A DNA stretch of 27,854 bases. It comes from a virus (lineage: Duplodnaviria > Heunggongvirae > Uroviricota > Caudoviricetes). Positions 3,606 to 27,238 of this stretch are shown here, in pieces. The DNA lies in IMG/VR virus record IMGVR_UViG_3300032782_000004. One strand, 5' to 3'. Each line of letters opens with the position of its first letter. Position 1 is the stretch's first letter. The notes beneath the pieces were generated by a model. The model did no database searches. It was given only the letters and a program-made list of their open reading frames with translations, and was not told where the DNA came from. The position numbers and the translations under genes were made by a program.

Positions 3606-3614
3606 TTGGTCAGG

Positions 3615-5294
3615 ATGACGCGATACGCAGCTCACGTGAACCGACGCGCGACCTCTCAGCAAGAGAGCGCTCGTGCCGATCAGGTACAAAACAACGCGGG
3701 CGGTTTCGTGTTCGCGCTCGACAAGTGGAAACGCCTGGATCGCTTTCTTATTCTTGGGGCCGATGGTGGCACTTACTACGTCAGCGAGCGCGAGTTGACG
3801 ATCGACAACGCGAACGTCGTATTGGAATGCCTCGCCGAAGACGGTCTCCGGACGGTTCGGCGCATCGTAGAAATCAGCGACACCGGCCGCGCGCCGCGGA
3901 ACGACCCGGCAATTTTCGCGCTTGCGATCGCTGCGGGTACCGGCATCGGCGTCGGCGGCTACGGCGGCACCGTCGCCGCGGCAACGCGGAAAGCAGCGCT
4001 CGAGGCGTTGCCGAAGGTTTGCCGTATCGGAACCCACTTGTTCCATTTCGCCAATGACGTCGAAGGCTTTCGGGGATGGGGCCCGGCGTTGCGCAAAGCA
4101 ATCGCAGCCTGGTACGCACAACGCGAGCCGCGCGCGCTCGCTTACGATCTCGTGAAGTACCAGTCACGCGATGGCTGGGGGCACAAGGATTTGATCAAGC
4201 TGTCGCATCCTCAAGCGCCGACGGCGGCGCACAAAGCGGCGTTGGCATGGTCTGCACGCGGCGGTACCGAAAAGATGGGCGTTTCAACGCGGAAGAAGGG
4301 CGGCGGCGAACGCGGTACGATCGCCAACCGCGATGCTCTTCCGGCGATTATCGAAGCTTTCGTCGAAATTCACGCCGATGGCGTCGACGTTCGGCGAGCT
4401 TGCGAGCTGATTCGCGCTCATCGGCTGCCACACGAATGCGTCCCGAACGAGCTCAAAAATCGACCGGAGATCTGGGACGCGCTCTCCGAGCACATGGGGC
4501 TCACGGCGCTCATGCGCAATCTCAACAAGATGACGGCGGTCGGGCTCCTGAAACCGCTCTCCGACAAAACGCATGCGATTTGCTCGAAGCTCATTGATCC
4601 CAACGCCCTGTTCAAGGCGCGCGTACACCCGCTCGCGGTGCTTATCGCCCTCAAGACCTATTCGGCGGGTCAAGGCGCTCTTGGCAAGTTGACGTGGATT
4701 CCGACCTCGGAGATCGTCGACGCGCTCGATTCGGCGTTTTACCTCGCATTCGAGGCGATCGAACCGACAAACAAGCGGCACCTGCTTGGCGTCGATTGCT
4801 CTGGCAGTATGACGGCTCCGATCGCGCGCTTGAACCTTACCGCTCGAGAAGGCGCGGCAGCGATGGCGATGGCGACGGTGCGGGCCGAAAAGCGTACACA
4901 TGTGATGGGTTTTTGCGGCCAGTTCGTGTCGCTTCCGATCACGGCAAAGCAGCGCCTCGACGATGTCGTTCGAACCGTAGGGCAGGCGAGCTTCGGCCAA
5001 ACCGATTGTGCGTTGCCGATGATTTACGCGGCGGAGCACAAGCTCGAAGTCGATTGCTTCTCCGTTTACACCGACAACGAGACGTGGTTCGGCAGCGTCC
5101 ATCCGTTTCAAGCTCTTCGGGCGTACCGCGAGCGAATGGGTATCCCGGCAAAGCTCGTGGTCGTTGGAATGGCATCGACTGGTTTCACGATCGCCGATCC
5201 GACCGATGAGGGCATGCTCGACGTAGTAGGATTCGATTCCGCTGCGCCCGCCGTCATCGCCGATTTCGCCGCCGAGCGGGAGGTATGCGGATAA
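3615..5294 (+). CDS. rsr: Ro60/Rsr TROVE-vWA RNA-binding protein
   Basis: NNAGGFVF, RFLILGADGGTYY, KYQSRDGWGHKDLIKLSHP, ALMRNLNKMT, MIDAS DCSGS, YTDNETW, DVVGFDS: characteristic Ro60 blocks along the whole length. Confidence 0.96.
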   Translation: MTRYAAHVNRRATSQQESARADQVQNNAGGFVFALDKWKRLDRFLILGADGGTYYVSERELTIDNANVVLECLAEDGLRTVRRIVEISDTGRAPRNDPAIFALAIAAGTGIGVGGYGGTVAAATRKAALEALPKVCRIGTHLFHFANDVEGFRGWGPALRKAIAAWYAQREPRALAYDLVKYQSRDGWGHKDLIKLSHPQAPTAAHKAALAWSARGGTEKMGVSTRKKGGGERGTIANRDALPAIIEAFVEIHADGVDVRRACELIRAHRLPHECVPNELKNRPEIWDALSEHMGLTALMRNLNKMTAVGLLKPLSDKTHAICSKLIDPNALFKARVHPLAVLIALKTYSAGQGALGKLTWIPTSEIVDALDSAFYLAFEAIEPTNKRHLLGVDCSGSMTAPIARLNLTAREGAAAMAMATVRAEKRTHVMGFCGQFVSLPITAKQRLDDVVRTVGQASFGQTDCALPMIYAAEHKLEVDCFSVYTDNETWFGSVHPFQALRAYRERMGIPAKLVVVGMASTGFTIADPTDEGMLDVVGFDSAAPAVIADFAAEREVCG

Positions 5295-5304
5295 ACAGAT
5301 TCGT

Positions 5305-5372
5305 GCTCGGAGCCGTTGAGGTTGGGTTACCCTTTGGCGGATATCTCCCAACTTCGTTTCTCCGCCCCGAGC
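5305..5372 (+). ncRNA. Y-RNA-like stem-loop, copy 1
   Basis: Outer stem GCTCGG/CCGAGC, inner 9-bp stem GAGGTTGGG/CCCAACTTC, pyrimidine-rich internal loop; begins 10 nt after the Ro60 stop. Confidence 0.7.
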
Positions 5373-5382
5373 CTGTATTGAG

Positions 5383-5459
5383 AAGGTCCGAGCCGTTGCG
5401 GTTGGGTTATCATGCAACGATTCCCCCAGTCGCGCTTCTCCGCCCGGGCCTTATTTTTT
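5383..5459 (+). ncRNA. Y-RNA-like stem-loop, copy 2, followed by a U tract
   Basis: Outer stem AAGGTCCG/CGGGCCTT, inner 9-bp stem GCGGTTGGG/CCCAGTCGC, contains GGTCCGA, ends TTATTTTTT. Lies 80 nt after copy 1. Confidence 0.72.
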
Positions 5460-5469
5460 CTGAGACCAG

Positions 5470-5643
5470 ATGGTGAAGAAAGAGATTTCACGTGGCGACG
5501 TTCTTCGGCTGGCGGCCGAAGCACAGCTCGATCCGAGGACGGTCAAGCGCGCCATCGAACGCGGCATCGAAAGCCTGCAAGCGGCCGTGGACAAAGATCG
5601 CCTTCGCGCCGCCGCGGCCAAGTTGAGGATCAAAGTCGAATGA
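5470..5643 (+). CDS. Small HTH-like DNA-binding protein (57 aa)
   Basis: MVKKEISRGDVLRLAAEAQLDPRTVKRAIERG...; LAAEAQLDPRTVKR fits a helix-turn-helix pattern. Not in the ORF track. Confidence 0.7.
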   Translation: MVKKEISRGDVLRLAAEAQLDPRTVKRAIERGIESLQAAVDKDRLRAAAAKLRIKVE

Positions 5644-5649
5644 ACTTCT

Positions 5650-5860
5650 CTGGAGGTAACTCCAGTTTGGCGTACCCGCGGAGCGCGGGTTCGAAACACT
5701 CTTCGAAAGAAGAGGACAACGTCCGAAGGAAGCGGACGGCACGGGCGATCAAGCGCAAGCTCGAACGTCACGGCCCCGCATTGCCTCGGAAACCGGCCTT
5801 GCGCCGGAGCCCTCGTCTCAAGACGAGGCAATCGATCGTCATCATCGTTTCGCTTTCTAC
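5650..5860 (+). ncRNA. Putative structured ncRNA ending in an anti-repeat (tracr-like)
   Basis: Perfect hairpins at 5650-5665 (GTAA loop), 5674-5690, 5699-5714 (GAAA loop), 5720-5738, 5793-5807 and 5811-5828. No credible CDS. Confidence 0.5.
5826..5860 (-). repeat. Inverted degenerate copy (anti-repeat) of the array repeat
   Basis: Minus strand GTAGAAAGCGAAACGATGATGACGATCGATTGCCT matches the 35-nt repeat at 26/35 positions with no gaps. Confidence 0.8.
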
Positions 5861-5999
5861 GAGAGCGCGAGCGCCGAGGTGCCGCGAGACATGGTTTCGA
5901 GCAATTTCGCTCGGATACGGCGACGTGGAGCCGATGATCTACGAACCGCTCGCAGACCGGCTTGCAAGTACGCGATTCGTCTACGTCGTTGGCAGGCCG

Positions 6000-6257
6000 G
6001 TCGAAAGCGATTCGACGACGACAATCGGTTGTCAGTGGAGCCGGATCAGGATCGCCGGACGGACGGTGGCGCGTCGAAAGCGATTCGACGACGACAATCG
6101 GTTGTCAAACGGACCTAGCGCAGAGTAGCACAGACTACGTGACGTGTCGAAAGCGGTTCGACGATGACAATCGGTCAGTCAGAAGCGTCTCGCGATCTCG
6201 CGAGAGTTTCGAACACATCGTGTCGAAAGCGATTCGGTGATAGCGATTGATTTGTCA
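6000..6257. CRISPR. CRISPR-like mini-array: 4 repeats, 3 unique spacers, no cas gene in window
   Basis: GTCGAAAGCGATTCGACGACGACAATCGGTTGTCA is identical at 6000-6034 and 6073-6107, variant at 6146-6181 and degenerate at 6222-6257. Spacers are 38, 38 and 40 nt. The repeats are certain; CRISPR identity is inferred. Confidence 0.65.
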
Positions 6258-6382
6258 GCGCGTCCTGCGCAGGCGATAATCTCTGTTACGTACCCCAAGT
6301 AACGCCAAAACTCGCGCGGCGGAGCATCAAAGCGCATCCGCTGCGCGGCCTCGAGCATTCGCGCACGCTGAACGTCGGTCAT
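6179..6382 (-). CDS. Small hypothetical protein (67 aa) running antisense into the array
   Basis: ATGA-coupled to the upstream - strand gene; its C-terminal third overlaps repeat 4 and spacer 3. Confidence 0.4.
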   Translation of the reverse strand: MTDVQRARMLEAAQRMRFDAPPREFWRYLGYVTEIIACAGRADKSIAITESLSTRCVRNSREIARRF

Positions 6383-7527
6383 GCGAACGTGATCGGCTGC
6401 GGCGTGACCGGCACCGCCAGCGCCAGTTGAAGCGTCTTGGTGAACAGCCCGCTCAAGAACGTTGGTGCCGGTATAGTCGACGGATCGAGCGGTGGATTCG
6501 GCGGGGGCGCCGCGACCTCGAGCGCGACGAATTCCCCGAGTGGTCCGCTAAGCTCGTCGTTGCTCGGCGTTCCGAACGTCTCGCTCAAGTTTTGTTGCGC
6601 AACCGCAAAGTAACTCTGCGGCAAATACACGAGCGGGCGGTCGATGAGCAATTGCGCTTCGTCGGTGAGCGCGACGAGAAAATCGAGTGCGGTCGCGTTC
6701 GCTTGTACCATCGGCAACGGCTCCGACAGCTCGGCGAGCGTGATTTGCCCTGCGCTGTTTCCGAAAACGCCGGTGCCGGTGAGAATGAAATTGTCGATGA
6801 CGGCGATGTCGATGCTGCCCACCGCGAGCGGCACCGCAGCCGGACGTTTGCCGGTGAGTCCGACCGTTGCCGTGAACGGGCCCGCGCCCGTCGAATCGTG
6901 ATAGATGAGCTCGACGGAGCGCGCGCCGTTTCCGGCCGGAATAGCCGGCGTCGTCGCGACCCCGTTCGTATCGAACGGCGAGGTCGAATAGACCGCCACG
7001 TTCGTCACCGGCGTCGCTACCGTCTTGAATGCGGTCGTGTTGGATGTGATCCCGGAGTACGCGGCGGTGAGTACGATCTGCGTCGCGCCGAGCACCGTTG
7101 CCACTTCGTAGAAAACGCCAGGCTGCGAAAGGAATTGGATCAGATCACCCGATTGCAAATTCGGAATTTGTGTGGCCGTCGTCGCAACGCCGAAGAGGCC
7201 GTTGGCGACGAAAAACGATCCAGGCAGCGTCACTGCTTTGCGCAGTTCGTAGGGAAGTGTCGGCGGCGTCGATGTATCGGGTTGGCAGGGAAACGGTGGA
7301 GGCGCTCCGGCGCCGGCCATGTTCAAGGTGAGCATCCGCGTAACGGTTGTTCCGCTCGGTGTCGTCACGTCGCTGTCGACGTTGAGCCCAAAAAATTGGC
7401 CGAGAACCGGATCAGTGCCCACATTGTCGTAGAGCGGCACTGCGGAAAGCGCCGCAGCAGCTTGCGTTGGCCCATAAGGGCTATTCGTCACGTCGACGGT
7501 CCAGGCGAGCACGATTTGGCTGGGCAT
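6379..7527 (-). CDS. Probable virion structural protein (beta-rich, Thr/Pro-rich)
   Basis: Long ORF, likely start MPSQIV at 7527; composition resembles phage structural proteins. No family recognised. Confidence 0.7.
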   Translation of the reverse strand: MPSQIVLAWTVDVTNSPYGPTQAAAALSAVPLYDNVGTDPVLGQFFGLNVDSDVTTPSGTTVTRMLTLNMAGAGAPPPFPCQPDTSTPPTLPYELRKAVTLPGSFFVANGLFGVATTATQIPNLQSGDLIQFLSQPGVFYEVATVLGATQIVLTAAYSGITSNTTAFKTVATPVTNVAVYSTSPFDTNGVATTPAIPAGNGARSVELIYHDSTGAGPFTATVGLTGKRPAAVPLAVGSIDIAVIDNFILTGTGVFGNSAGQITLAELSEPLPMVQANATALDFLVALTDEAQLLIDRPLVYLPQSYFAVAQQNLSETFGTPSNDELSGPLGEFVALEVAAPPPNPPLDPSTIPAPTFLSGLFTKTLQLALAVPVTPQPITFA

Positions 7528-8804: not shown

Positions 8805-9030
8805 ATCGATCTGTCGTCGCTGTCATCGTCTGCGCGCTTTGGACGCGAGTCGCCACTGCGTCGAATGCCTCGAAACGCTGAAAGCGCTCGGGCGCCCGCG
8901 ACGGGCAGACGTCATGAGCGCCCCCGAGAAAGAAGAGCCGCCGATCACCGAGCGATCAAACGCGACGCCGACGCTTCCGCCGCCGGCGACTCCGGGAGAT
9001 CCCTGCGGAATTGGAGATTTGGATCGATGA
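8791..9030 (+). CDS. Small Cys-rich hypothetical protein (possible Zn finger)
   Basis: MSKNRSICRRCHRLRALDASRHCVEC (two CxxC); overlaps the recombinase end; ATGA-coupled to the next ORF. Confidence 0.6.
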   Translation: MSKNRSICRRCHRLRALDASRHCVECLETLKALGRPRRADVMSAPEKEEPPITERSNATPTLPPPATPGDPCGIGDLDR

Positions 9031-9251
9031 GTAATGACTACGAAATCCACGAGCTCTCATTCAAATGCATGCACCCAGTGGGCAAACGCTTGCCTGGATC
9101 TGGGTATTGCCACATTCATTGTCGGGATTGTGGCGAATATCTCGGGGTGATAATCTCCGAAGAGCGCGCCGAGATGTACCGCCAGAGTCTACGGGATCAT
9201 GTGAAGTGGAAGGAGTACGCGCAAATGGGGACGAAGGTGGAAGGCGAATGA
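9027..9251 (+). CDS. Small hypothetical protein (74 aa, Zn-ribbon-like)
   Basis: MSNDYEIHELSFKCMH...CHIHCRDCGEYLG; ATGA-coupled at both ends. Confidence 0.65.
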   Translation: MSNDYEIHELSFKCMHPVGKRLPGSGYCHIHCRDCGEYLGVIISEERAEMYRQSLRDHVKWKEYAQMGTKVEGE

Positions 9252-9480
9252 TCGACTACGGGATCCGCGAGCTCTCGGAGGATATCGCGTCGTGCCGGAT
9301 GGCGTGAAACAGTGGCAAGCGTTGATGCCGTCACGTGTTAGCGGTTGGATCGATTACCGGACAGCGCACGCGATTTTCGATGACCGCCTCAATTGGCCAG
9401 AAGGGGCGTACTTCGATCTCGAGGATGTAGATCTCGAGAAGGGCGTCGATCTCGAAACGGGCGTGTACGTTCTCCCATGA
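9248..9480 (+). pseudogene. Hypothetical protein apparently frameshifted near 9285
   Basis: The coupled start 9248 gives only 19 aa; a second frame (9292-9480) ends coupled to the next gene. One extra base would join them. Confidence 0.4.
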
Positions 9481-9842
9481 CGACGAAGTACAAGAAAGTC
9501 CGCTCGGCGGTCAGCGACACCGTCCTCGAACTGCGCAATCACACGGCGGCGTTGGAACGGCTCTCGGACTTGATCGAGCTCGCCGACGTGCCGCCGGAAC
9601 GCGGCGGTTACCATTTCTCCGAATGGGAACGTCAGTTTATCGGAAACCTACGCGAGTTGGATCCTCCGATATTTTCGCCGGAACAACGCGCGAAGATCGC
9701 GGAGATTTGGCATGCGACCGATCTCCGAAAACGTCTCGAGATCGACGAGAAGCCGGCGAACCTGTTCTCGAAGTTGTCGCCGCAACGGCAAGCCGAGCAG
9801 CTTGCTCGCGCGGCGCGCGTCAAGCTCCCGTGGGAGAAATGA
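9477..9842 (+). CDS. Hypothetical phage protein (121 aa)
   Basis: ATGA-coupled; contains FSEWERQFI...FSPEQRAKI. Confidence 0.7.
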   Translation: MTTKYKKVRSAVSDTVLELRNHTAALERLSDLIELADVPPERGGYHFSEWERQFIGNLRELDPPIFSPEQRAKIAEIWHATDLRKRLEIDEKPANLFSKLSPQRQAEQLARAARVKLPWEK

Positions 9843-9882: not shown

Positions 9883-10002
9883 ATGCCGACTTGGTTCCCC
9901 TACGCTCTCGCCGCCTCGGCGGTCGTCTTGATTGCCGCCGGATCGCGCTCCGGTTGGAAGCCATCCGGTTCTCAGCCCAAGCAACCTCTTCGATGGCCGT
10001 GA
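9883..10002 (+). CDS. Small membrane-anchored peptide
   Basis: MPTWFPYALAASAVVLIAAG hydrophobic stretch; stop overlaps GTG of the next ORF. The true start may be 9839 via a frameshift. Confidence 0.4.
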   Translation: MPTWFPYALAASAVVLIAAGSRSGWKPSGSQPKQPLRWP

Positions 10003-10265
10003 ACAAACAGCCTGAGCCCGGAGACATTCTGCTCGGTTGCGCGCACGCGCCCGATCCGCACGACGGAGCGCACATTTTTCGCGCCGAGTGTGTGTTGTTT
10101 CGTCCGAACGGCAAAAACGAGCGCTCGAAATGGATCGTACTCTGCGATGCGTGCTTTCAAGAGCACGTCGTCCGCTTGGGAGGTCGGCCGTCGGACGCGT
10201 CGCTCGCGTTCGAGGCTGTCTGGGGCGAAAACGAACCGCCGCTCGTGTTCGAGCAACCCTCCTAG
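9993..10265 (+). CDS. Hypothetical protein (about 90 aa)
   Basis: MAVNKQPEPGDILLGCAH...LCDAC; converges on the - strand module. Confidence 0.65.
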   Translation: MAVNKQPEPGDILLGCAHAPDPHDGAHIFRAECVLFRPNGKNERSKWIVLCDACFQEHVVRLGGRPSDASLAFEAVWGENEPPLVFEQPS

Positions 10266-12055
10266 CTAGTCGCTGCACAGGGGCGCGCGCTGATCACGCC
10301 GTTCTCGATCTCGAACAGGTAAAACACTCCGTCTGGGCCCATCACCGTAGTCGGCTGCCCCTTCGAGATGTTGAGCGCGATCCGAGCGGCAGTTTGCATC
10401 GCCGGCGGCACTTCGACGGGCGCGCCCCAGACGTTGCAGCTCGGCGCCGATGACGGCGCTTTCGGCGACCATGGGACGCCCCACCACCAGCCGGGCGCGC
10501 CGCGCGGCACGAACTGTGATGGACGAGCATGCGGGGCGCCCCCGCCGCTGTGATGCGCGTGTGGTGGAGCACCGACACCGGATTGCATCTTCGGATAGGG
10601 CCCATACGACGCCGCCGGCGAGGTGCCGGCTCCGAGGGCACCGACTCCAGACTTCATTTTCGGATAAGGTCCGTAAACGTACGGCGACGGCGCCGATGGA
10701 GGAGGCGGCTTGGCCGCCGCGGTCGGACTACGGGTCGGCTCCGATGGTTTCGGCGCGGCTTTGGGCGGGGCCGGCGCGGCTTTGGGCGCGGCGGGCGGCG
10801 GGGCCGGCGCGGCTTTGGGCGCGGCGGGCGGCGGCGACGACGCTTGCGCTTTTTGCAGTTGAGCCTGTTGATCGGGCGTGAGTTGCGCGAGCTGCTGCAT
10901 GCTCACGTAGTTGGCGAGCTGTTGCTGCTGATCAGGCGTCAATTGCGCAAGCGACTGGAGCGCCGATTGCGTGATGACATCGTTCAACCACGGATAGTGC
11001 GCAGCTTGAGATTGGAGCGCGGCGTCGAAGCCTTGCAGGACATCGCCGGAGAGCTTCGCGCGCATCGCGCGCACTTGAGCTTCGTTGACGCCTTGGCTCG
11101 CCAGAAGCCCGGAGGCGAGCTGTAGCCCTTGCCGTGCGCTGTCGCTTGGAAGAATTTGAGCGAGCGAGGCCAAACCCGGCGTCGATTGGATAGCCTTCGT
11201 TCCGGTGTCGAGGATCTGTTTCGTCTCCTGCGGCGTCAGATTTGCGACGGCCGCATTGAGCGCGCCTTGAAGCTGCTTGCCGGTCGAGACCGCGATGCCG
11301 ATGTCGAAGGCTTTCTGCGCATCGGGTGAAGAGAGCGCCGCTCGAGCCGTATCGAACGCCGCTTTGGTGATGTTCTGGCCGCTCGCGACTTTCTTGGCGA
11401 GCTCGAAGCCGGTCGTGGCGATAGCTCCGCCGGGGATCGCCGAGGCGATCGCATTCTCGAGCGCGGCGTCGATCGGTTTGCCTTCCGCGAGCGCGGCACC
11501 GGCCCCGATGACCGCTGCGATGCCGGTGCCTAGACCGGGGACAAGCGAGACGACCGTTGCGGCGTACGGCGCGACCGCGCGGACAGCCCCGAGCTGAGAC
11601 TTTGCCGCATCGAGCAATGCCTGGTCGATACGTTGGCCTTCGGCGAGATGGGCGACAGCCGTGATCGGGGAGGCGGCTGCTGTGATGACGGGGCCGAGAA
11701 TCGGGATCTTCGCGATGAACGAAAGCGGCCCGAGTGTCCATTGTGTCGTCGTGTGGACCCCAGCTTTCGCCAACCATGCGTGGGTAGCGCTGAGTATCGA
11801 TTGCAGATCCTTTTTGCGGCCTTCGGTTGACGCCCAAAAAGGATCGTTCGGGTTCTGAAGCGTTTTCAACGCACGACCGTCAGTCGGAAGACCGTACTGT
11901 TGAAGCCGTCCGTATCCGTGCGCGTAGGCGGCTATGGTGAACGCAGGGATCTCGAAACGGCCTGACTCCGATTCGAATTCAGACGCGAGAGTAGCTCGCA
12001 TCCATTGAGGGTGCGAATCGATCAGCTTCTTGAGATCTGGTCCTAGCGCGGCCAT
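10262..12055 (-). CDS. Probable virion protein (597 aa; Ala-rich helical region, Pro-rich linker)
   Basis: Long ORF with internal repeats PKAAPAPP, LAQLTPDQQ and YGPYPKMxSGVGA; lies in the structural module. Confidence 0.75.
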   Translation of the reverse strand: MAALGPDLKKLIDSHPQWMRATLASEFESESGRFEIPAFTIAAYAHGYGRLQQYGLPTDGRALKTLQNPNDPFWASTEGRKKDLQSILSATHAWLAKAGVHTTTQWTLGPLSFIAKIPILGPVITAAASPITAVAHLAEGQRIDQALLDAAKSQLGAVRAVAPYAATVVSLVPGLGTGIAAVIGAGAALAEGKPIDAALENAIASAIPGGAIATTGFELAKKVASGQNITKAAFDTARAALSSPDAQKAFDIGIAVSTGKQLQGALNAAVANLTPQETKQILDTGTKAIQSTPGLASLAQILPSDSARQGLQLASGLLASQGVNEAQVRAMRAKLSGDVLQGFDAALQSQAAHYPWLNDVITQSALQSLAQLTPDQQQQLANYVSMQQLAQLTPDQQAQLQKAQASSPPPAAPKAAPAPPPAAPKAAPAPPKAAPKPSEPTRSPTAAAKPPPPSAPSPYVYGPYPKMKSGVGALGAGTSPAASYGPYPKMQSGVGAPPHAHHSGGGAPHARPSQFVPRGAPGWWWGVPWSPKAPSSAPSCNVWGAPVEVPPAMQTAARIALNISKGQPTTVMGPDGVFYLFEIENGVISARPCAATS

Positions 12056-12856: not shown

Positions 12857-13540
12857 TCACGACGTCGTGCCGGCCGCGAAAAGCATGGCTCCTGGGAACA
12901 GCTCCGGATCTGGATCGCTCGGATCGGTAGTGAGCGTCCCATGAACAGTGAAGTTGCCGCCTGTTCCGGTGTTGGTTCCTGGGCTGGTAGCGTTAGCCAG
13001 ATCCAAGTAGGTATCGTTCGTTCCGGATGGAGCTATTAAGTTCTGAGAGACCGCCAAGAGCGTTGCGGCCGACATCGCTGTCGTCTGTACGAAGAAACTG
13101 CGTATGTTCGTGTTGACGGCGGGTCCGCCACCGTCCCAGAAAACATTGAAGTTCGTGAACCCGGTTATCTCACCGCCCACGTTTTGCGGAGAGCTGGATA
13201 GCACAGATTGGCCTTCTTTACGCCAATATACAGTGTACACATTCGTGCCGCCGACGTGCACGATAGCGAACCATACCCAACCCGTGTAACTTCCTGACGC
13301 TATAGCGACCGGAAAGTTAGCCCCATTGTATATGAATACGCACAAGTCTGTGGCGAGTATTTCGGCGGTATCGCAACCAAAACCGTTGCCGGCCCCATTG
13401 GAAACGCCGAACACTTGGGTAAACGAGGTTGCGTAGGAGTTAACTCTGCACCAGCAACCTAATGTAAAATCGGCGCTTCCGGATGGAAACGTCGCCCCTC
13501 TGGACAAGTAGTTGGCCGTAGAGGTCGATAGAACGGACAT
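12857..13540 (-). CDS. LamG/concanavalin-A-like domain protein (227 aa)
   Basis: DFTLGCWCRV...WVWFAIVH...YTVYW pattern typical of LamG-like folds. Confidence 0.7.
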   Translation of the reverse strand: MSVLSTSTANYLSRGATFPSGSADFTLGCWCRVNSYATSFTQVFGVSNGAGNGFGCDTAEILATDLCVFIYNGANFPVAIASGSYTGWVWFAIVHVGGTNVYTVYWRKEGQSVLSSSPQNVGGEITGFTNFNVFWDGGGPAVNTNIRSFFVQTTAMSAATLLAVSQNLIAPSGTNDTYLDLANATSPGTNTGTGGNFTVHGTLTTDPSDPDPELFPGAMLFAAGTTS

Positions 13541-13541
13541 G

Positions 13542-14303
13542 TCATTGCACTAGTGTTACTGACGACACTTGCATTGTCTGCGGAAGCGTTGCCGGGTTGA
13601 TCGTCCCGCCGCTACCGCCAAGTGCGACGTTCAAGATCAAAAACATCGGGAAGTTCGGCACCGAAGTGGTAACCGTGCATGTAACCGCCCCGTCGATCAG
13701 ATAGACCAGCGATCCGGCTGTCCAGTTCAACCCATAGGTGTGCCAATTCGTGCTGACGTCTGAAGTGCTCGGGTAGCAACCGGAATTGTCCCCGGACACA
13801 TGGATCTGTTGATTCACGTGCGTCAGATTGCTGCTTAGTATCTCTGCTATGTCTATCTCGCCGCCTCCGCCCGTGTCGCAGGGGGGCGCATCAGGATCCG
13901 TATGGAACTCCGATTGGCACGGTTGCCCCAACATCCATATGGTAGGCCACGGTCCTGCGCCGCCTGTAAATTTGGCGCGAATCCGCAAATCTCCGTACTG
14001 AAAAGAAAACGTGTTCCAGAACGACAATCCCGATGTGTATGAGTAACCCGGTTGCGAAGTGTCACTTTTGACAGTGAGATTCAACAGGCCGCCGGACAGC
14101 GTAACGTTACTAGCTAAGTAATACTGCTGCTCTCCGTTTGCTATATCGGGGATCCTGTTGATGATCGCCCAATCCGAATCGATCAAATCGAAGCCGTACC
14201 AGATCCGCCTCGACAGCGTTAGGCTGTTGTGTGTGCCGCCGATGTTGGACGGCTGCCCAGTACATCCGATCAAAAACAACGCTAGCGTGAGTATCTTGTT
14301 CAT
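13542..14303 (-). CDS. GH16 glycoside hydrolase with lipoprotein-type signal peptide
   Basis: Start [14 protein letters not shown] (ATGA-coupled); WPTIWMLG, catalytic [26 protein letters not shown]. Confidence 0.88.
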
Positions 14304-15978: not shown

Positions 15979-16650
15979 TCAATGCATCGGATGCGATCGT
16001 CTAAAAACGTTGCGGTTCCATGCGACATATCCAGCGATCGCCGTCATGCCGAGAACGGCAATCGTCGCGAGTACGGGCGCCCCTTCCGGCTTTTTGGGCG
16101 ACGAGACGAGCTCGAACGCGTAGCTGCTATCAGGCACTTCGACGACGCCATTCGCGTGGCTCAACACAGCGCGCATGTGCGCGCGCACGTCGCCGACGGT
16201 GATGGCGCCTTTGCCGTTCGAATCGAAGGTTTGATTGGCGGCGTACTCGGGCGAGCCGGCAGCGAACATGACAGTGCTATCGGGCGCGCCGATGAGGTTC
16301 GCTTGGCCGAATGACGCGAGCACGTAGTCTTCGATCTGTTGCGGGATCTTACGACCGAGTGTCGACGCAAAAAAGCGTTCGACGAGCGGGAGCTGCTGCT
16401 CGGCGGTCATGGCGCGGATCTGGGCCGTCGTCGTGCCCAGACGGTTCGCCGTCGATTCGATGAACTGGATCAAGCCACTCGCCGAACCGTTTGGATTCTT
16501 CGCCGCCGGATTGAAACCGCTCTCTTCACTGATGACCAGCGCGATGCCGTTCGGATCCCACCCGTGCCGTGCAGACAGATCGACAAGCCCGCGCAAAAAC
16601 GTCGGAGTGACGGTCTGGATCCCTGGCAGCGCTAGCAAGTACGTGGACAT
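15979..16650 (-). CDS. Lytic transglycosylase (SLT-like) with C-terminal membrane anchor
   Basis: [13 protein letters not shown]...ASGLIQF; C-terminal hydrophobic helix [19 protein letters not shown] followed by basic residues. Confidence 0.85.
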
Positions 16651-17409: not shown

Positions 17410-18275
17410 GGCGGCGCCGCCGGTTGCGGGATTGACACTATGTAAACCATAGAGTTCAACGTGCTGTGCGCCGCGCTGGACGTCACGTAAGAGAAAACTA
17501 GGTTGTTGCCGAAAACAGTGGTTGTTATCCAGTTGCCGATTAACAATGAAGTGTTGATGTTGCTGACGGGTGCGGGCCCTTTATCCGTACCGAGCTGTGT
17601 CGGAGCGCCGCCGTTGATGCGGTAGTAGGTCAGATAGGAGATCCACTCCGCCTTGTTCCCGGGCACGTCTACCGCTTCGAAATAGGCGTAGATTCTGTAT
17701 ACGGTGTTGTCGGATAGCGGGATGGTTACGACCGGCGTGGCGGCAGCGCTGTTGGTGTTAATGTTCGTCGGACCGTATACAGGTCCAATCTCGGGGCCTG
17801 TAGCGCCTGTCACGCCGGTGGGGCCGAATGATCCCGTCGGGCCTGTTGCGCCCGAGGGCCCGGTCATACCGGTAGGCCCTTGTACCCCTGTGCTGCCCGT
17901 GGCGCCCGAAGGTCCTGTTACTGTGCTCGCCGGTCCGGTAGGGCCGACGTCTCCGGTAAACCCAGTGGGGCCGGTTGCTCCGGTGCTCCCGGTCCCGAAG
18001 GCGCCAGTCGCGCCAGTGCTACCGGCTGGACCGGTAGGCCCCGTAGAGCCAGTGTTCGCCGCGCCGCCGCCAGGGCCTGTGCTGCCGATCGCTCCGGTCG
18101 GGCCTGTAGCGCCCGTATTCGTAGCCGCCCCGGGCGGCCCCGTTGATCCGGTAGGGCCCGTCGCGCCGGTCGGCCCAGCCGATCCGGTCGTACCGGTACC
18201 GCCCCCTCCGCCAGGTAGACTGCGCTCCGCATACGTTTGAGTGGCGTATCTCCCTTTGCCGATTACGAAGGACAT
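17406..18275 (-). CDS. Collagen-like (Gly-X-Thr) fibre protein (289 aa)
   Basis: About 45 G-X-T type triplets followed by a beta-rich C-terminal domain. Confidence 0.85.
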
Positions 18276-18299
18276 GTTGAGACGAACCTCGCTTCTCCG

Positions 18300-19809
18300 T
18301 CAAATTAGAGCGGGGTTGAAAACGTGAATTACGGCGTCCAGGCGGACCTGAACGCTCGAACTGCTCGGATTCTTGGTGCCGAGTACCGTCATGACAACGG
18401 TATGATCTGCGCTGTCCAACAACCCAGAATCCCAAAGATGCGCGTTGCGCGTAGTGCCCGAAGGTGTATAGGGATCCACGGTCACAGGGGCGTTACCGTC
18501 AAGAGACACAGAAAACTGTCCGACATCAGGGCTGGTCGTCCCTGTTATCATGATCCTCCAAGACTTCTCACCGGTAAATGTAATTGAATCGCCGGCAGTC
18601 GATGACGTCTCTTCATCATAGTCGTACGCCCCGTCAATTTGCGATCCGTCGTTCGTGGCGCCGGGAGTCGGCCCGGCTGTAACCCATCCGGTGCCAGAAT
18701 GCGCCACAGCGCCGCCGGCATTGGATAGGCTGCAATAGTAAGTATATGACGTCGGTATTGGGACTTTTCCTGTCTCCCAACCTACCGCGTCGAGATAGCG
18801 CGAATAACCCGTTTCTGGGGCCGTCTCTTGCGCTGACAGCATGCCGCCGCCTTCTGAGATCTCGTCCCAACTGTATATGCAAGTAAGAACGTTTCCGCTA
18901 AACGACAGTGAACTGCGGAGTGATCGGATCAGTTCAGGTTGAGTCGGCTCATCTATATAGGCGGTAACTTGTATGGGTCTTCGGTCGTTTTGGAAGCCCC
19001 ACGATACGCATGTGTACCGCCCCAATATGCCGGGCCAGTCTACTTGATCGGCCGAAAACATGGTGGAGAACGGATGCCGCGCCGAACCCGACGGTAAGTT
19101 CGGATCGGGCCCGTATACCGTTTCTCCGGCCATGCTGTAGGTACTAGCCGTGCTGTTAGAGTGCCCGGCGGAGATCGCGAACATCGCGCCTCCTGCCGCA
19201 GCGACGATGTCGTTGTAGCGCGCCAGGGACATGTTCGTAGACGTCGTCATGACACCGAAAAAGAACACGACCGGCATGCCATTGAATCGGACATATTGCG
19301 GATCCGAAAACAGCGATGTCAAATCCGCGATGATGGCCGCCCACTGCGGTGATGCTAGATCGTAGTTAGAAATGTCGGCGTTGGGCTCGAACGAGTACCC
19401 CGGAAGTAGTGTTAATGCGAACTTGATCTTGTCGTGGTATTGGCTCGCTATGTAGGCTCGAAGCGGCGCATTCTGCTTCGAGGCCTCCGATGTATATGGG
19501 GCGATAGCGGACAGCGGGGGGAAATAGTCGAAGAACCACGATATGCCGGACCGCGCGGCCATCAATATTTCCGAGTCCACAATCGATTGCGTGTCGACCG
19601 GAAATATTACGTCGTTAGACCAGCATCCGAACTTGGTACCGCCTACTATCGGATACGCAGGCCACCCCACAGGCTTTCTGTAGTTAAACTTGTACCAGAG
19701 CCCTGGTTTATCCCACGGCTCATCGTCGGGTATACCCCACCCATCCCATCTTATTAGGCCTACTATCGGGTCTATTGCTTTTCAGAGTAGGCCCCCGAGC
19801 GATTACCAC
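18300..19809 (-). CDS. GH99-like/WbsX-like glycan-active domain plus galactose-binding-like domain; apparent frameshift near the N-terminus
   Basis: The frame upstream of the called start reads PIVGLIRWDGW. Also QYVRFNGMPVVFF, IYSWDEISEGG and C-terminal GDSITFTG...VSLDG...HTVVMTVLGTKNPSS. GTG 19809 joins if one T of TTTT 19779-19782 is removed. Confidence 0.7.
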
Positions 19810-21813: not shown

Positions 21814-24800
21814 TTACAGAGGCACCAATCGACTGTCGACGATGCTCGGATCGAAGAAAGCGAGGTGTGCAGAGGCGTCGTTTACACCGAAGCTAGCAAC
21901 TAGCTTTTTGCCATCTCGCGCAAGACCCGCGCAAAATTCAATACCTACACGGGAAAAGTAGAACAAGTCGCTGACAGCAGTAATCCGGAAGTCTCCAGTG
22001 AGCGCGACGAAGCGATGCAAATATACGCGCTCCGGCCGCCAAGCGACTTCGTGCACGAGGCATAACCACCCGTCTCCGTGTCGGATAAGTTGAGAGCCAC
22101 CCCGGAAATCGACGAGCCGAGCGGGTGCCGTGTGTCGTGCGATCTCGACGGTCCGCTCGCCGACATCGGATGAACCACCGCCGGGCGAATAGCATCGAAT
22201 GGCGATGGTCGGATCGCACCAGTACAAGAAGGATCCCGGACGGCCGGCGATCGGCATCCAGTTCTTCTGCGTCTTGTGCCCCTCGTAGTCGCGGATCGGC
22301 ATGATCGCATCGACGTGTCTCTTCTCGTCGAGCCGGCCAATGATCATCTCGCAGCGGCCATCGACGTTGTCGGAGAGGTCGCGTACCGTCGCGGACACGA
22401 AGTACGAATCGGCGCTCGACCACAAGCGACAGTCCTCGAGCCCCTCGACGGGGAACTTGCTGCGCGGCGTGCCGGTCACGTCTTCGATCAGCGTTGATCG
22501 AATCGGCCTCCAGCTTTCGTCCATTTCGACGATGTAGTTGCGCGTTCGGATGATCCCGCTGCCGTCGATTGTCGGGTACTCACCGTCAACGACGACGTAG
22601 TTGACCGTCCGAACGAGCGCCAACCGCGCCTCCTTCTCGACGAAGATCGAGGGGTTCATCGGCGCCCAACCGTCGCCCGGTTTCCAGTCGATCTCTCGAA
22701 TCTCGGCCTCGAAGAGCGTAGCCGCCGACTTCGCGTAGAACGTAAAGTTTCGGCGCGCTTCGTTTCGGATGAAATCGTCGCGATGGAGCGTGAGCTCGGT
22801 GCACGCGCGATATCCCGCTTCGCGCCGCTCCGGGATTTTACTGTGGTACCCGGTAATGGCGAGCTCGCGCTTGGCCCCGAAGTCGTAGACGTTCAATTCC
22901 ATGAAGAGCATCTCGTCTGCCGGCTTGGTTCGAATGAACGCCTCGGCGATCAAAGCGGCCGGGTCGTTCTTCCCTTTTTCGCGGTAGTACGTGGCGAGCA
23001 AATTGAGTGCTTCTGCGCGCCAAGGACGATAGTTATACGCTTCGAAGCACGCTTCGATGAAGGCCGGCTCGTCGCCGAGATCTTTCAAGCAGATCGCGAT
23101 CCCGTAGTACGAGTACCAGATCTCCTCGTCCCACCCGCCACGTTCGATGCGCTTCTTGTACCAGTAGATCGCGCGGTGCGGTCGATCGGACTCGCGATAC
23201 GAGTTCCCTAGATAGAACATGTACCGCTCGTTGTTCGGTTCTTCTTGCAAGCCATCGAGAAGTAATCGGATGTCCCGCTCCGTCTTGTCCGACTTGCTCC
23301 CGCCATCGTTGCGGTCGTCGATGGTCAAACTGGTGATCGGTGCGTATTCGACGCCTTCGACAGAGAGGTGTTCATGGGTGACTCCGACGTAGCAAGCGGG
23401 AACGTCGCGACGCAGGAGGCGCGTGTTCGGGTTCTTGAGCGTTCCGGCGTATTGGATGATCTTATATGCCGGAGCGACGAGCGCGCTTTTGTCGAGCGTC
23501 CCTTGAAGCACCATGTCGGCGTCGATGAGCAACGCGTAATCCCAATCGGGGACAGAGCGCGCGACGCGGAGGCCCTCGTTTCGGCCGTGAGCAAAGTTTT
23601 TGAACTCGATCCGTTCGAGCTTCCCCGGTAGCGGATACTGTTCGAAAAACTTCGTGATCAGCTCGGCCGTGTTGTCGTCCGATCGGCTGTCGATCGAAAT
23701 GGCCCAAGCGTCGATGAACGGGAGCGCGGACGTCAAACAGCGTTCGATAATCTTGCTCTCGTTTCGAACATTCATCACGAGACAGACACGCGGGATCTCG
23801 GGGAGACGTTTCGGCCGCTCGATCGCTTTTTCGAAGTCGATGATGCTGTCATCGTGGTCGGCTTTGTACCAGTCGAAGCGGAAGCCGGCGCGTTCCATTC
23901 GAGCCCAGTTGTTGACCTCCCAGGTCAACGAAACGGGATCGGCATGGAGCGTAGCGTTCAATGCGACGAGATCGCGTATTCGGTTCCTATCGACGAGCAA
24001 AAATCCTCCGCAGAACCGCCAATGCACGACATCGTCTGTCAATGGCGGCGCTTCCGCCGCTGCGCCCCAACATCCTGGAGCGAGCACGCATCCCGCCGGA
24101 GGGTGTAGCGCTCGCAAGCGTTTCCGAAAAGACTCCTCGTCGCGGACGATCTTCATGATACCGAAGTCGATCCAAGCGAAATGCGTCGACACGTTATCGA
24201 GCGAGCGGGCAAGGTCAAGCAGCTCTATCTTCGAATTTTGGAGCAATAGGAAATCGCGCGTGTCCTTCTCGAGTGTGCGATGCGCCGGAAGCGTCAGTTC
24301 GCGTCCTTCGGCCCATTTGAATGGCCATAGATCTCCGAGCCGCATCGGGACGATCTGGACATTCTCGCGCCACCAAGCTCGATCCATGAGCCGTTCATCT
24401 AGAAACACCAAGATCGGAGCGCCGCATTTAGCAAGCCGTTCGAATTGTCGGAACTGCTCGTCCTCGTCGATGCGCCGGTCTTCCAATCGAAAAAATCCTG
24501 TGACGAGCGTTACTTTCGTCGGTCGCGCTACGATCCAATCATGAACGGCCTTTGGATTGCCTTGAAGAATCGTTTTCGTCATTTCCGGCGCTACAGCAGC
24601 GGTCAGCCCGACTTTTCTAGCTCGATCGAGCACATCGTCGCGTTTGAACCATGAGACGCCCGGGTACTGCCATTCTCGAAAATCGGCGCCATGTCGAGCG
24701 CTCCCCGGTGAACCGAATTCATTGCCTTCAGCGAGCCGTATCGAAGCGGCGAGCACGCCTTCTGGTGCGAGCTGTTCTCTAGCCGCGACAAAAAACTCGT

Positions 24801-25197
24801 CGAGCTGACTGTCCGAGGCGTGGCTCAAGATCGAGTGCGAAATGATGAAATCGAACTTCCAACCCAATCCGGTGCGAAAGTCCGCGCGGGGAGAAAATTG
24901 CGGTCGTTTCGCCACGACAGTCGGCGCGGCCTCGGATGCCCTCAACGTCGACTGGATGAGCCACGAGTTCGGATCGATGCCGAAGTAGTTGCCGGCATCG
25001 AGGTATTGCATGATCGGAAAGCCGGCGACCAGAGCGCCGCATCCTATTTCGAGCACGCGATGATGCGGCTTGCAGCCGAGATCTTTTAAGATCTCGAGCT
25101 GCGCTAGACCTTCTTCAGGGAGCGTGCAAACGTAGCTGACGGCATCGGCGTTCTCGGGGCTAAACGGGAGCGGCTTCACGGTCATTATCGACCCCAT
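21814..25197 (-). CDS. Multidomain glycosylation protein: SAM methyltransferase + HtrL/WlaTC-like GT + GT2 + TPR + beta-propeller glycosidase-like domain
   Basis: VLEIGCG; VTLVTGFF...HFAWIDFG; CLVMNVRNE...IDSRSDDNT...LLIDAD; TPR-like YMFYLGNSY/AIYWYKKR; MNPSI, GLEDCRL, QKNWMP, EFCAGL. Confidence 0.85.
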   Translation of the reverse strand: MGSIMTVKPLPFSPENADAVSYVCTLPEEGLAQLEILKDLGCKPHHRVLEIGCGALVAGFPIMQYLDAGNYFGIDPNSWLIQSTLRASEAAPTVVAKRPQFSPRADFRTGLGWKFDFIISHSILSHASDSQLDEFFVAAREQLAPEGVLAASIRLAEGNEFGSPGSARHGADFREWQYPGVSWFKRDDVLDRARKVGLTAAVAPEMTKTILQGNPKAVHDWIVARPTKVTLVTGFFRLEDRRIDEDEQFRQFERLAKCGAPILVFLDERLMDRAWWRENVQIVPMRLGDLWPFKWAEGRELTLPAHRTLEKDTRDFLLLQNSKIELLDLARSLDNVSTHFAWIDFGIMKIVRDEESFRKRLRALHPPAGCVLAPGCWGAAAEAPPLTDDVVHWRFCGGFLLVDRNRIRDLVALNATLHADPVSLTWEVNNWARMERAGFRFDWYKADHDDSIIDFEKAIERPKRLPEIPRVCLVMNVRNESKIIERCLTSALPFIDAWAISIDSRSDDNTAELITKFFEQYPLPGKLERIEFKNFAHGRNEGLRVARSVPDWDYALLIDADMVLQGTLDKSALVAPAYKIIQYAGTLKNPNTRLLRRDVPACYVGVTHEHLSVEGVEYAPITSLTIDDRNDGGSKSDKTERDIRLLLDGLQEEPNNERYMFYLGNSYRESDRPHRAIYWYKKRIERGGWDEEIWYSYYGIAICLKDLGDEPAFIEACFEAYNYRPWRAEALNLLATYYREKGKNDPAALIAEAFIRTKPADEMLFMELNVYDFGAKRELAITGYHSKIPERREAGYRACTELTLHRDDFIRNEARRNFTFYAKSAATLFEAEIREIDWKPGDGWAPMNPSIFVEKEARLALVRTVNYVVVDGEYPTIDGSGIIRTRNYIVEMDESWRPIRSTLIEDVTGTPRSKFPVEGLEDCRLWSSADSYFVSATVRDLSDNVDGRCEMIIGRLDEKRHVDAIMPIRDYEGHKTQKNWMPIAGRPGSFLYWCDPTIAIRCYSPGGGSSDVGERTVEIARHTAPARLVDFRGGSQLIRHGDGWLCLVHEVAWRPERVYLHRFVALTGDFRITAVSDLFYFSRVGIEFCAGLARDGKKLVASFGVNDASAHLAFFDPSIVDSRLVPL

Positions 25198-25198
25198 G

Positions 25199-26434
25199 CT
25201 ACCCTAATTCTTTTTCGAGCGACATAGTCGATTTGCGTGTCAGGATCGTTAGCCCGTTGTTGTTGCTCAGTCGATTTTCTAGGCGCCAATCCGAATGCGC
25301 GTCTAGGAACTCTACGATCGCCGGCCATAAACCGAGCCCGCTCTCGGACTCGTCCCGACTGCCGTAAGTCGTTGTATCGTGCATGAGGATGTGCTTACGT
25401 ACTTTCGACTCATGTACAAATAACTCGCATCGGAGCTGAGCGTAGTTGTGTATCGTGTCGATGAACAATAGATCTGTTTTTTCGATGCTAGCCGCTAAGG
25501 CGCTTTCGACGCAGAATCGAAAATCGATTTTCGCCGCCGCGGCGATCTCGCTTAACTCCCGCATATCCAAATGGCGGATATCGTAACTCCGCATCGACTT
25601 CGGACGCCCGCGCAGTAACCCCCATGTAGATCTGCCCGCGCCGAATTCCGTGACGTGCGCGCACTTGCTCGCGTACATCGACAGAACCGAGATATGCTCG
25701 TTAATGTCGGACGGCTCGATCTCACACTGATGATACTGCCTTTCGATTTTGCCCAGTGCAGTGCATATCTTGTTGAGCCCCGAATCCCACCGAATGCGAT
25801 CGCTTTCTGTTATCGCGTCGAACTCGTGCAAACTAGATCCGCTGACGGCCCCCTTATGCCACACCCCCATGCCGTGCACAGTCCGCTGCGCGAATCCGGC
25901 CCATCTTAGTAGCCAGTAGATCCAATCGTCGCCGCAGTGGATAAGAAGCTCGGAAGGTATAGGGAATGCGATCGACACGGCCTCCCTGGACATCGCGAAG
26001 AAGGCCCCGTGTACATAGTCTGTAGCGGTCGAGTCCGCGGACGGCTCTAGTGGCGCGTAGATCTCGTTTTCGTTGAGTAGTCTGGCGATCCAATATTCTC
26101 TTTGTTCCGCGCTATCGCAGCGCATCAGTAACGACTTCGTCCAATTCGGCGATGCGATCAGATCGGCGTTCGCTAGAACTAGTACGTCGTGTTCTGAGGC
26201 CAGAAAGATTTCCGCCAACTGATTCCATGCCGGATTCACGTAGACGTTCACGTCGTTGCGCACCACAGAGATCGAAGCGCCCATCTCGCGTAAAACCGAT
26301 TTAACATCGGCTGTCGCGCCGTTTTCGATCGCAACCACATGCGTCTCCGGGCTTAAGAAAGATCGAATTGCGCTCAACAGCAATTCACGCGGTTCAGCGA
26401 AGCAAGGCACCCCCACCATAATTCTGGCAGTCAT
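25199..26434 (-). CDS. GT2-like glycosyltransferase fused to a class I SAM methyltransferase
   Basis: MTARIMVGVPCF...IENGA...NPAWN...NAD...GDDW, then SDINEH...EFGAGRST...DLLFIDTIHNY...MHDT. ATG 26434 has an ATGA overlap with an alternative-frame stop. Confidence 0.75.
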   Translation of the reverse strand: MTARIMVGVPCFAEPRELLLSAIRSFLSPETHVVAIENGATADVKSVLREMGASISVVRNDVNVYVNPAWNQLAEIFLASEHDVLVLANADLIASPNWTKSLLMRCDSAEQREYWIARLLNENEIYAPLEPSADSTATDYVHGAFFAMSREAVSIAFPIPSELLIHCGDDWIYWLLRWAGFAQRTVHGMGVWHKGAVSGSSLHEFDAITESDRIRWDSGLNKICTALGKIERQYHQCEIEPSDINEHISVLSMYASKCAHVTEFGAGRSTWGLLRGRPKSMRSYDIRHLDMRELSEIAAAAKIDFRFCVESALAASIEKTDLLFIDTIHNYAQLRCELFVHESKVRKHILMHDTTTYGSRDESESGLGLWPAIVEFLDAHSDWRLENRLSNNNGLTILTRKSTMSLEKELG

Positions 26435-27238
26435 TTTGCCGCCTCCATAGCTCTGTGTGCGGTGTTCAAGAACCTGTCCTCTGACATGTTTGTGGGGCAA
26501 GCCTCTGCACGCTTCAAGAGCAGCGCGTACACGTCGGGATCGAGCGCGCACTTCTCGGTCGCATGTACATCGAACACTCGCTTTCGGTCGGAGCGACCAG
26601 CCGTCTGGGATCCGCCCGTCAAACGGCTTAGAGTAGGTTTCCGAGTCAGGCATACCGCCCCACTTCTGCACGAAATAAAGCCGAGATTGTTCGATCGCGA
26701 CGGCCATCCAGTCGGGGCGCCCGAGAGCGTTGAAAGTCGTCCAACAGCCGGCATGTTGCACCGGCTCGGAGCAATTCCAAGTGCCGCTCACACCGGCGCG
26801 CACGAGACGGACAGCGTAGTCCGAGTCTTCGTAGTACCCGGGCCAAAAGTTTTCGTCGTAGAACCCGACTGTTTGCGTGCACTCCGGCGTCTGCCCGAAA
26901 AGGCACCAGCCGTTTCCAACAATTCGATGAGTCTCGAGATCACGTGTCATTTCCTCGAAGGTGCGCTCGCCGAGGACGACGTCGTCGTTCGCGATGACAA
27001 TCGGTTCGCCGAGCTCGAGCATCTTGTTCCAAGACGCTGCAACGCCGATATTCTCATCGGGGATGACGGCGTGGATCTTCGAGCGCCACGGACGATTTGG
27101 AAGCGATGACAGATCGCCGCCGTTGAACACGATCACGTAGCCGCTCGGCGCCAACGATCCGCGTTCGGCCGATTCGATCAGACGGACGAGCCCCTCGAAA
27201 TTGACGAGAACCGGAACGCCGAGCTTCACCGGTCGCAA
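26431..27238 (-). CDS. GT2-family glycosyltransferase (as sequenced, reads through in frame into the next gene)
   Basis: NIGVAASWN, ANDDV, VGFYDENFWPGYYEDSDY. The ORF track gives one 679-aa ORF, 25199-27238. Confidence 0.75.

Follow-up and report, generated by a model that had tools for sequence, protein, structure and literature searches.

A candidate tracr-like scaffold RNA gene with its own anti-repeat upstream of a phage CRISPR array, remote from the TnpB-like effector gene it may serve

Gene content of the locus and pairing of the anti-repeat with the array

The window analyzed here is a stretch of 27,854 nucleotides from a virus of the Caudoviricetes (IMG/VR record IMGVR_UViG_3300032782_000004), a phage of soil or wetland. 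It encodes a split family-A DNA polymerase, a Dam methylase, a Ro60 protein with TROVE and vWA domains (3606-5294) and an integrase-like protein, together with collagen-repeat tail-fibre proteins, a lysozyme and glycosyltransferases. The polymerase is divided between two overlapping ORFs (3-842 and 835-1797), the upstream one of which also carries a UDG domain. Two very large ORFs occupy 21814-27238 on the minus strand, one of 1127 aa combining methyltransferase, glycosyltransferase-2 and TPR domains, the other of 679 aa with a glycosyltransferase-2 domain. The minus-strand ORF at 10262-12055 probably corresponds to a variable receptor-binding or tail protein. From 10802 onwards, two sibling contigs (L002 and L004) diverge from the window here by more than 700 differences between identical flanks, and the product measures 597 aa in the window and 586 aa in these siblings.

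The region of interest begins downstream of the Ro60 gene. Directly after it, at 5295-5459, lie two tandem units of about 80 nt with shared motifs; these are candidate Y-like RNAs with no Rfam match. They are followed by an ORF of 57 aa (MVKKEISRGD...; 5470-5643) that has no PHROGs match. Immediately 3' of this ORF is the candidate scaffold RNA gene described below (5645-5999, plus strand), which is followed by a CRISPR array (6000-6256). The scaffold starts two bases past the stop codon of the 57-aa ORF, so that it could be transcribed by read-through from the Ro60 operon; consensus scans near the scaffold found neither a sigma-70 promoter nor an intrinsic terminator. Rfam searches, at gathering thresholds over the whole window and at E 10 over 5200-6400, returned nothing relevant, and ARAGORN found neither a tRNA nor a tmRNA.

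The array consists of four direct repeats of 35 nt on the plus strand with a period of 73-76 nt. Repeat 1 (6000-6034) and repeat 2 (6073-6107) have the same sequence, repeat 3 (6146-6180) is decayed and identical to repeat 1 at 28 of 35 positions, and repeat 4 (6222-6256), at the trailer end of the array, is the most decayed (23/35). The three spacers between them lie at 6035-6072, 6108-6145 and 6181-6221. Module and array are unchanged over 5200-6400 in three sibling contigs (L001, L002, L004), and a fourth (L003), which ends inside repeat 1, shows no change over the part it covers; having no differences in the module, the four siblings carry no covariation information. Different spacers between the same repeats were found in contigs or unitigs from two other wetland runs, which indicates that the population makes use of this type of array. 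The contigs of four wetland runs, in which 5770-5957 is uncovered, include no joint or inverted form.

Across all loci examined, the spacers match only themselves. They have no exact 22-mer match in the viral_contigs collection, and no match in about 56 kb of the phage, the effector gene discussed below and its upstream region included. Neither the repeat nor a scaffold motif was found in viral_contigs, and the repeat was not found in genome_contigs either (185,579 species, one genome each), which is weak evidence against a host system with this repeat.

A preliminary description of this DNA had reported an inverted copy of the repeat, termed an anti-repeat, at 5826-5860, and we recover the same letters at the same place, with 139 nt (5861-5999) between its end and the start of repeat 1 at 6000. 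Read on the plus strand, it can pair without gaps with repeats 1 and 2 over 26 Watson-Crick and 2 G-U pairs of 35, and our recount agrees with the number given at the time. When both partners are read on the minus strand there are 26 Watson-Crick and 3 G-U pairs, and pairing with the decayed repeats 3 and 4 involves 23+3 and 24+4 pairs, respectively. The anti-repeat is the top inverted match to the repeat anywhere in the 27.9-kb window. When the other 27.4 kb of the window was shuffled 300 times with dinucleotides preserved, the highest score over both orientations was 21.2 on average and 24 of 35 at most. The complementarity between 5826-5860 and the repeat is therefore beyond chance. It is also contained in the minimum free energy fold of 5645-6035 as a single sequence (z -5.8).

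The repeat has another inverted match, of 25/35, at 16349-16383, inside the SLT-lysozyme gene on the minus strand, and it too lies above all 300 shuffles. Read on the minus strand, it corresponds to a repeat-like 35-mer within the mRNA, whose fit to the anti-repeat is poor by eye.

Anatomy of the scaffold RNA and its counterpart in a distant effector gene

The 5' domain (5645-5828) of the tracr-like scaffold has seven helices: H1 (5650-5665), H2 (5671-5693), H3 (5697-5715), H4 (5722-5729 with 5784-5790), H5 (5732-5779), H6 (5793-5807) and H7 (5811-5828). We recognized it by homology to the scaffold at the tail of an effector gene and by an nhmmer profile built from seven loci, which matches the window at 5644-6035 (E 1e-85). 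The anti-repeat comes next, and after it a conserved 3' domain or leader (5861-5999) that aligns with the matching segment of the effector-linked scaffold and of its orthologs. This segment contains hairpin H9 (5896-5915) and, at 5928-5957, a motif that hardly varies, GAGCCGAYGA...CCGCTCGCARAC. It may represent an extra RNA domain, a remnant of an ancestral omega-RNA end, or a conserved leader or promoter.

Two further features were noticed around the end of this segment. Just 5' of repeat 1, a shortened repeat-like stretch at 5968-5996 shares GCGATTCG with the repeat and ends in GGCAG where the repeat ends in GTCAG; a degenerate "repeat 0" and the former omega-RNA end are two possible readings of it. 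For the invariant repeat end GTCAG itself, a pseudoknot search by eye gave the conserved GGACAAC as a candidate partner.

The effector gene was found by walking leftwards from the window through identical metagenome contigs, which led to a contig of 91.4 kb (L011). Its 625-aa product carries the Pfam domains HTH_OrfB_IS605 and Cas12f1-like_TNB. The gene lies on the opposite strand, with its 3' end about 23 kb before the start of the window, and is followed by an array of its own, hereafter the primary array. A phmmer search against the PDB matched the protein to the TnpB of ISDra2 (E 6e-17) and, weakly, to RdCas12n (9J09, E 1.5e-5), and by its relatives the effector may be regarded as TranC- or Cas12n-like. 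Neither Pfam nor tblastn detects an effector gene in the 27.9-kb window, so that the only effector found in this phage is the remote one, and the window scaffold has none next to it. In GenBank phages, relatives of this region are limited to those of Ro60 and the TnpBs found are all distant; the species genomes yielded only TnpBs of at most 30% identity.

Positions 5645-5999 of the window align end to end with L011 (minus strand, 5135-4795), that is, with the last ~340 nt of the 625-aa gene plus the stretch up to the first repeat. The primary scaffold thus lies inside the called ORF of the effector, and only there does the RNA overlap the nuclease tail in the way known from Cas12n tracrRNAs. 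The indels that separate the two scaffold copies measure 4, 4, 5, 2 and 2 nt, tblastn of the effector against the window gives only tail matches in mixed frames and without significance, and hairpins differ between the copies by compensatory changes (for example CTGGAG/CTCCAG versus CCGGTA/TACCGG). These three observations indicate that the homology is at the RNA or DNA level and not at the level of protein.

The effector has 26 homologs of 41-99% identity, all of them metagenomic. Homologous scaffolds accompany eight orthologous effectors in other phage contigs, and the profile finds a scaffold beside the effector in L013, L014, L093, L015, L016, L094, L095, L019 and L023. Such effector-linked scaffolds are always on the strand of the effector and always upstream of the array, which places the window RNA on the plus strand. 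The preliminary description had counted two wobble pairs on the plus strand and three on the minus strand, and considered that these did not fix the strand; the counts hold, and the orthologs now supply the orientation. In L019, which is a more distant relative, an ORF with an HNH-like cysteine/histidine pattern is present between the effector gene and the scaffold (9000-9600).

Two contigs contain scaffolds that stand apart from the nuclease gene. L018 has a naturally detached guide module, comprising a scaffold and 15 or more array repeats at 17427-18870, 6 kb downstream of an effector gene (10001-11419) that ends without a scaffold. L095 has a second scaffold copy at 13109-13600, about 1.2 kb past the last profile match in the first array. 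This copy is truncated (profile positions 5-216) and lacks the ~140-nt 3' domain, and the anti-repeat in it (CGAACGTTTCCCATCATGG) fits another set of repeats, of the CACGATGGGAAACGTGCGTCAG type, which are decayed. Guide modules apart from the nuclease gene therefore recur in this effector family.

Covariation of the anti-repeat with the repeat and comparison of the two copies

In ten loci an anti-repeat stands just after the same hairpin, H7, and is complementary to the repeat of its own array, the repeats of the ten loci being widely different and unrelated in sequence. From seven distinct loci, RNAalifold predicts the anti-repeat:repeat helix unaided. This helix has 26 pairs, 16 of which have changed on both sides, and 85.7% of its cells are paired, a percentage that is inflated since the structure was derived from the same sequences on which it was scored. 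None of 2000 column shuffles reached these values, and sliding the partner by one to three columns left 27-47% paired. Within the scaffold, H1, H4, H5 and H7 are 82-96% paired, versus 23-67% with the partner slid by one column, and have 6, 6, 10 and 6 pairs changed on both sides, respectively. In H9 this holds for five of the seven pairs, and H10 and H11 are invariant across the aligned loci.

The comparison of cognate with foreign repeats by permutation is free of the bias from structure derivation. For the in-register fit, all anti-repeats but one pair best with their own repeat, and no other of the 5040 permutations does as well as the true assignment. With RNAduplex on the ten loci, own pairs average -36.8 kcal/mol and foreign pairs -21.6 kcal/mol; the own repeat ranks first in seven of the ten, and none of 100000 random assignments was as good. 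Covariation in homologous loci had been proposed as the check on the anti-repeat, and the outcome is positive. Judged from these alignments, 5826-5860 is a true anti-repeat that has co-evolved with the repeats of its own array. Together with the homology to effector-linked scaffolds, the covariation in ten loci bears out the tracr-like duplex suggested earlier.

The family alignment also refines the borders of this duplex. Its consensus form joins 5829-5870 to 6001-6031, with 5829-5860 and 5868-5870 as the scaffold arm. The first three bases of the anti-repeat, 5826-5828 (AGG), more probably close H7, a covarying hairpin whose closing arms are CCTCGTC (5811-5817) and GACGAGG (5822-5828), than pair with the repeat.

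The phage thus carries two paralogous pairs of anti-repeat and repeat, and these differ markedly. Between window and primary locus, the repeat and the anti-repeat are each about 48% identical (15 of 31 columns each), and the rest of the scaffold is 61% identical. The window anti-repeat forms 23 of 26 pairs with the window repeat (-33.9 kcal/mol by RNAduplex, as for the following values) and 20 of 26 with the primary repeat (-26.6 kcal/mol), whereas the primary anti-repeat forms 22 of 26 with the primary repeat (-30.7 kcal/mol) and only 13 of 26 with the window repeat (-13.1 kcal/mol). Given this poor fit, the first scaffold could hardly mature the second array, which would explain why the second array keeps a dedicated scaffold copy. 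Between the paralogs, 25 helix pairs have changed on both sides and are still paired. Ten pairs are broken in the window copy only and seven in the primary copy only; as the window copy breaks about as few pairs as the primary one, it is not visibly decaying.

Proposed function, competing explanations and comparison with known systems

With good confidence, we propose that 5826-5860 is the anti-repeat of a tracr-like scaffold RNA gene of about 355 nt (5645-5999, plus strand), a diverged paralog of the primary scaffold that would rebuild the guide stem for the distant effector. If transcribed, the scaffold RNA would use 5829-5870 to pair with almost all of the repeat, in cis for repeat 1 and in trans for the repeats after it, and the duplex, which RNase III or another enzyme might process, would reconstitute the terminal stem of an omega-RNA-like guide. 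The rebuilt guide could then be bound by the distant effector and direct it to any target of the spacers. By homology, the scaffold probably serves the TnpB-like nuclease encoded about 23 kb away. Such a history would be one in which the window repeat diverged until the primary scaffold no longer paired with it, leaving the second array with an anti-repeat of its own that co-evolved with it.

Weighing against this proposal, only two repeats are intact and two are decayed, the spacers gave no target, and the three siblings that span the array do not differ in it. The main rival builds on the same ground: the cassette would have arisen when the primary scaffold and array were duplicated and would no longer function, anti-repeat and repeat matching only because they were copied together. 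The degenerate repeats 3 and 4, the spacers without targets and the absence of a nearby effector gene would all fit such a leftover, and the second module of L095 shows that copies of this kind can decay. However, anti-repeat and repeat have each fallen to about 48% identity with their primary counterparts and still form 23 of 26 mutual pairs. Eight anti-repeat:repeat pairs have changed on both sides where neutral decay would break pairing, 17 further double changes keep the scaffold helices, and breaks are no commoner than in the primary copy. The spacer content, moreover, varies between samples. We therefore regard a decaying duplicate as improbable.

More doubtful still is a role as a decoy or regulator, in which guide-like RNAs would sequester or redirect the effector of the phage itself, of a competing phage or of the host. 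Phage sgRNA mimics that subvert Cas9 have been described (bioRxiv 10.64898/2026.06.01.729453, 10.64898/2026.06.03.729762). Here, the anti-repeat and repeat 1 lie on one strand only 139 nt apart, such that a single transcript could fold as a natural single guide, and the window anti-repeat still forms 20 of 26 pairs with the primary repeat. Against a decoy, the array has several, variable spacers and not one fixed guide, these match nothing in the ~56 kb of phage that include the effector gene and the region upstream of it, and no host system with this repeat is known, none of the 185,579 species genomes containing it.

The neighbouring Ro60 gene suggests another role, which we consider very unlikely: the scaffold could act as client or partner RNA for Ro60, which is encoded 350 nt upstream and would help to process the array transcript. 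The TROVE and vWA gene and the two Y-like stem-loops indeed lie just upstream on the same strand. However, the scaffold has no Rfam Y RNA match over 5200-6400 at E 10, and no Ro60 gene is present within the examined flanks of L011, L014, L015, L016, L018, L019, L023, L093, L094 and L095. The adjacency of Ro60 and scaffold is seen only in the phage of the window and looks incidental. With Ro60 near no orthologous module, whether linked to its effector or detached, within the flanks examined, the earlier suggestion of Ro60-assisted processing finds no support. Equally improbable is an element acting as DNA, that is, a recombination or inversion site, half of a protein-binding palindrome or a repeat stranded by an inversion, as also raised in the preliminary description: the inverted, imperfect repeat copy 139 nt away speaks for such a site, but the same inverted copy occupies the same place inside a covarying, structured RNA in all the relatives, ten loci with unrelated repeats, which a DNA site would not need.

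A tracr-like scaffold with a co-evolved anti-repeat is thus the reading we retain. A broader possibility, which we advance only tentatively, is that one phage TnpB-like effector is served by two orthogonal guide cassettes, each with a tracr-like scaffold whose anti-repeat has evolved along with the repeat of that cassette, such that the first scaffold cannot mature the second array. Scaffold plus array would then form an independent, mobile "guide module", free to be copied, inverted and relocated in phage genomes apart from the nuclease gene, as in L018 and L095. Such modules might even be exchanged between phages, or tap the effector of a related phage.

Anti-repeats and tracrRNAs are already known as a kind of element. 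What is unusual is that a complete guide-RNA cassette stands isolated in a phage genome, at a long distance from the single matching nuclease gene, and that its anti-repeat and repeat still fit each other after half of each has diverged from the primary pair. In the literature searched, we found no account of an additional scaffold-plus-array cassette that lacks an effector and has a co-evolved anti-repeat of its own. Should the cassette prove active, this would mean that the RNA part of TnpB-derived CRISPR systems can evolve and move apart from the protein. It would also provide a natural pair of orthogonal tracr:crRNA sets for one compact effector, of use in multiplexing, and a data point on how an omega-RNA splits into tracrRNA and crRNA. 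For annotation, effector-less phage arrays should be checked for scaffold genes of their own before they are called orphan.

A close parallel to the primary locus is Cas12n (type V-N, formerly V-U4; RdCas12n, PDB 9J09), a compact TnpB-derived effector. In Cas12n, the tracrRNA is encoded by the DNA of a disordered C-terminal tail and ends with the anti-repeat (PMC12216341). As in Cas12n, the scaffold overlaps the effector tail, the anti-repeat:repeat duplex would form the last stem of the guide, and adaptation genes are absent. In contrast to Cas12n, the effector described here is nearer by sequence to the TnpB of ISDra2 than to RdCas12n, and no effector gene adjoins the window copy. The ~140 conserved nucleotides between anti-repeat and array (139 nt in the window) likewise depart from the Cas12n guides described (PMC12216341). 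TranC (transposon-CRISPR intermediate) systems also combine a TnpB-like protein with a short array of 32-38-nt repeats and a guide split into tracr-like and crRNA parts, and some members occur in Caudoviricetes (as cited in bioRxiv 10.64898/2026.03.27.714800).

The omega-RNA (reRNA) of IS200/IS605 TnpB is similar in being a long structured RNA whose start lies within the 3' end of its nuclease gene and which carries its guide 3', and its nuclease is of the same protein fold family. The guide here would instead be encoded apart, in a repeat-spacer array, and be joined to the scaffold by a duplex that is intermolecular or long-range, and, unlike in IS200/IS605 elements, transposon ends and TnpA are absent. 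Viral sgRNAs, rAcrIIA1 and RNA anti-CRISPRs share with the window the presence of phage guide-RNA parts, anti-repeat and repeat, without an adjacent nuclease gene. However, these mimics copy a Cas9 or other Cas system of the host and have one fixed guide or none, whereas here the phage itself encodes a matching effector family and the cassette is a multi-spacer array. Finally, orphan or mini viral CRISPR arrays are likewise short arrays without cas genes in a viral genome; they rely on the Cas proteins of the host or of a co-infecting element and have no tracr gene of their own, whereas the window array brings with it a dedicated scaffold gene.
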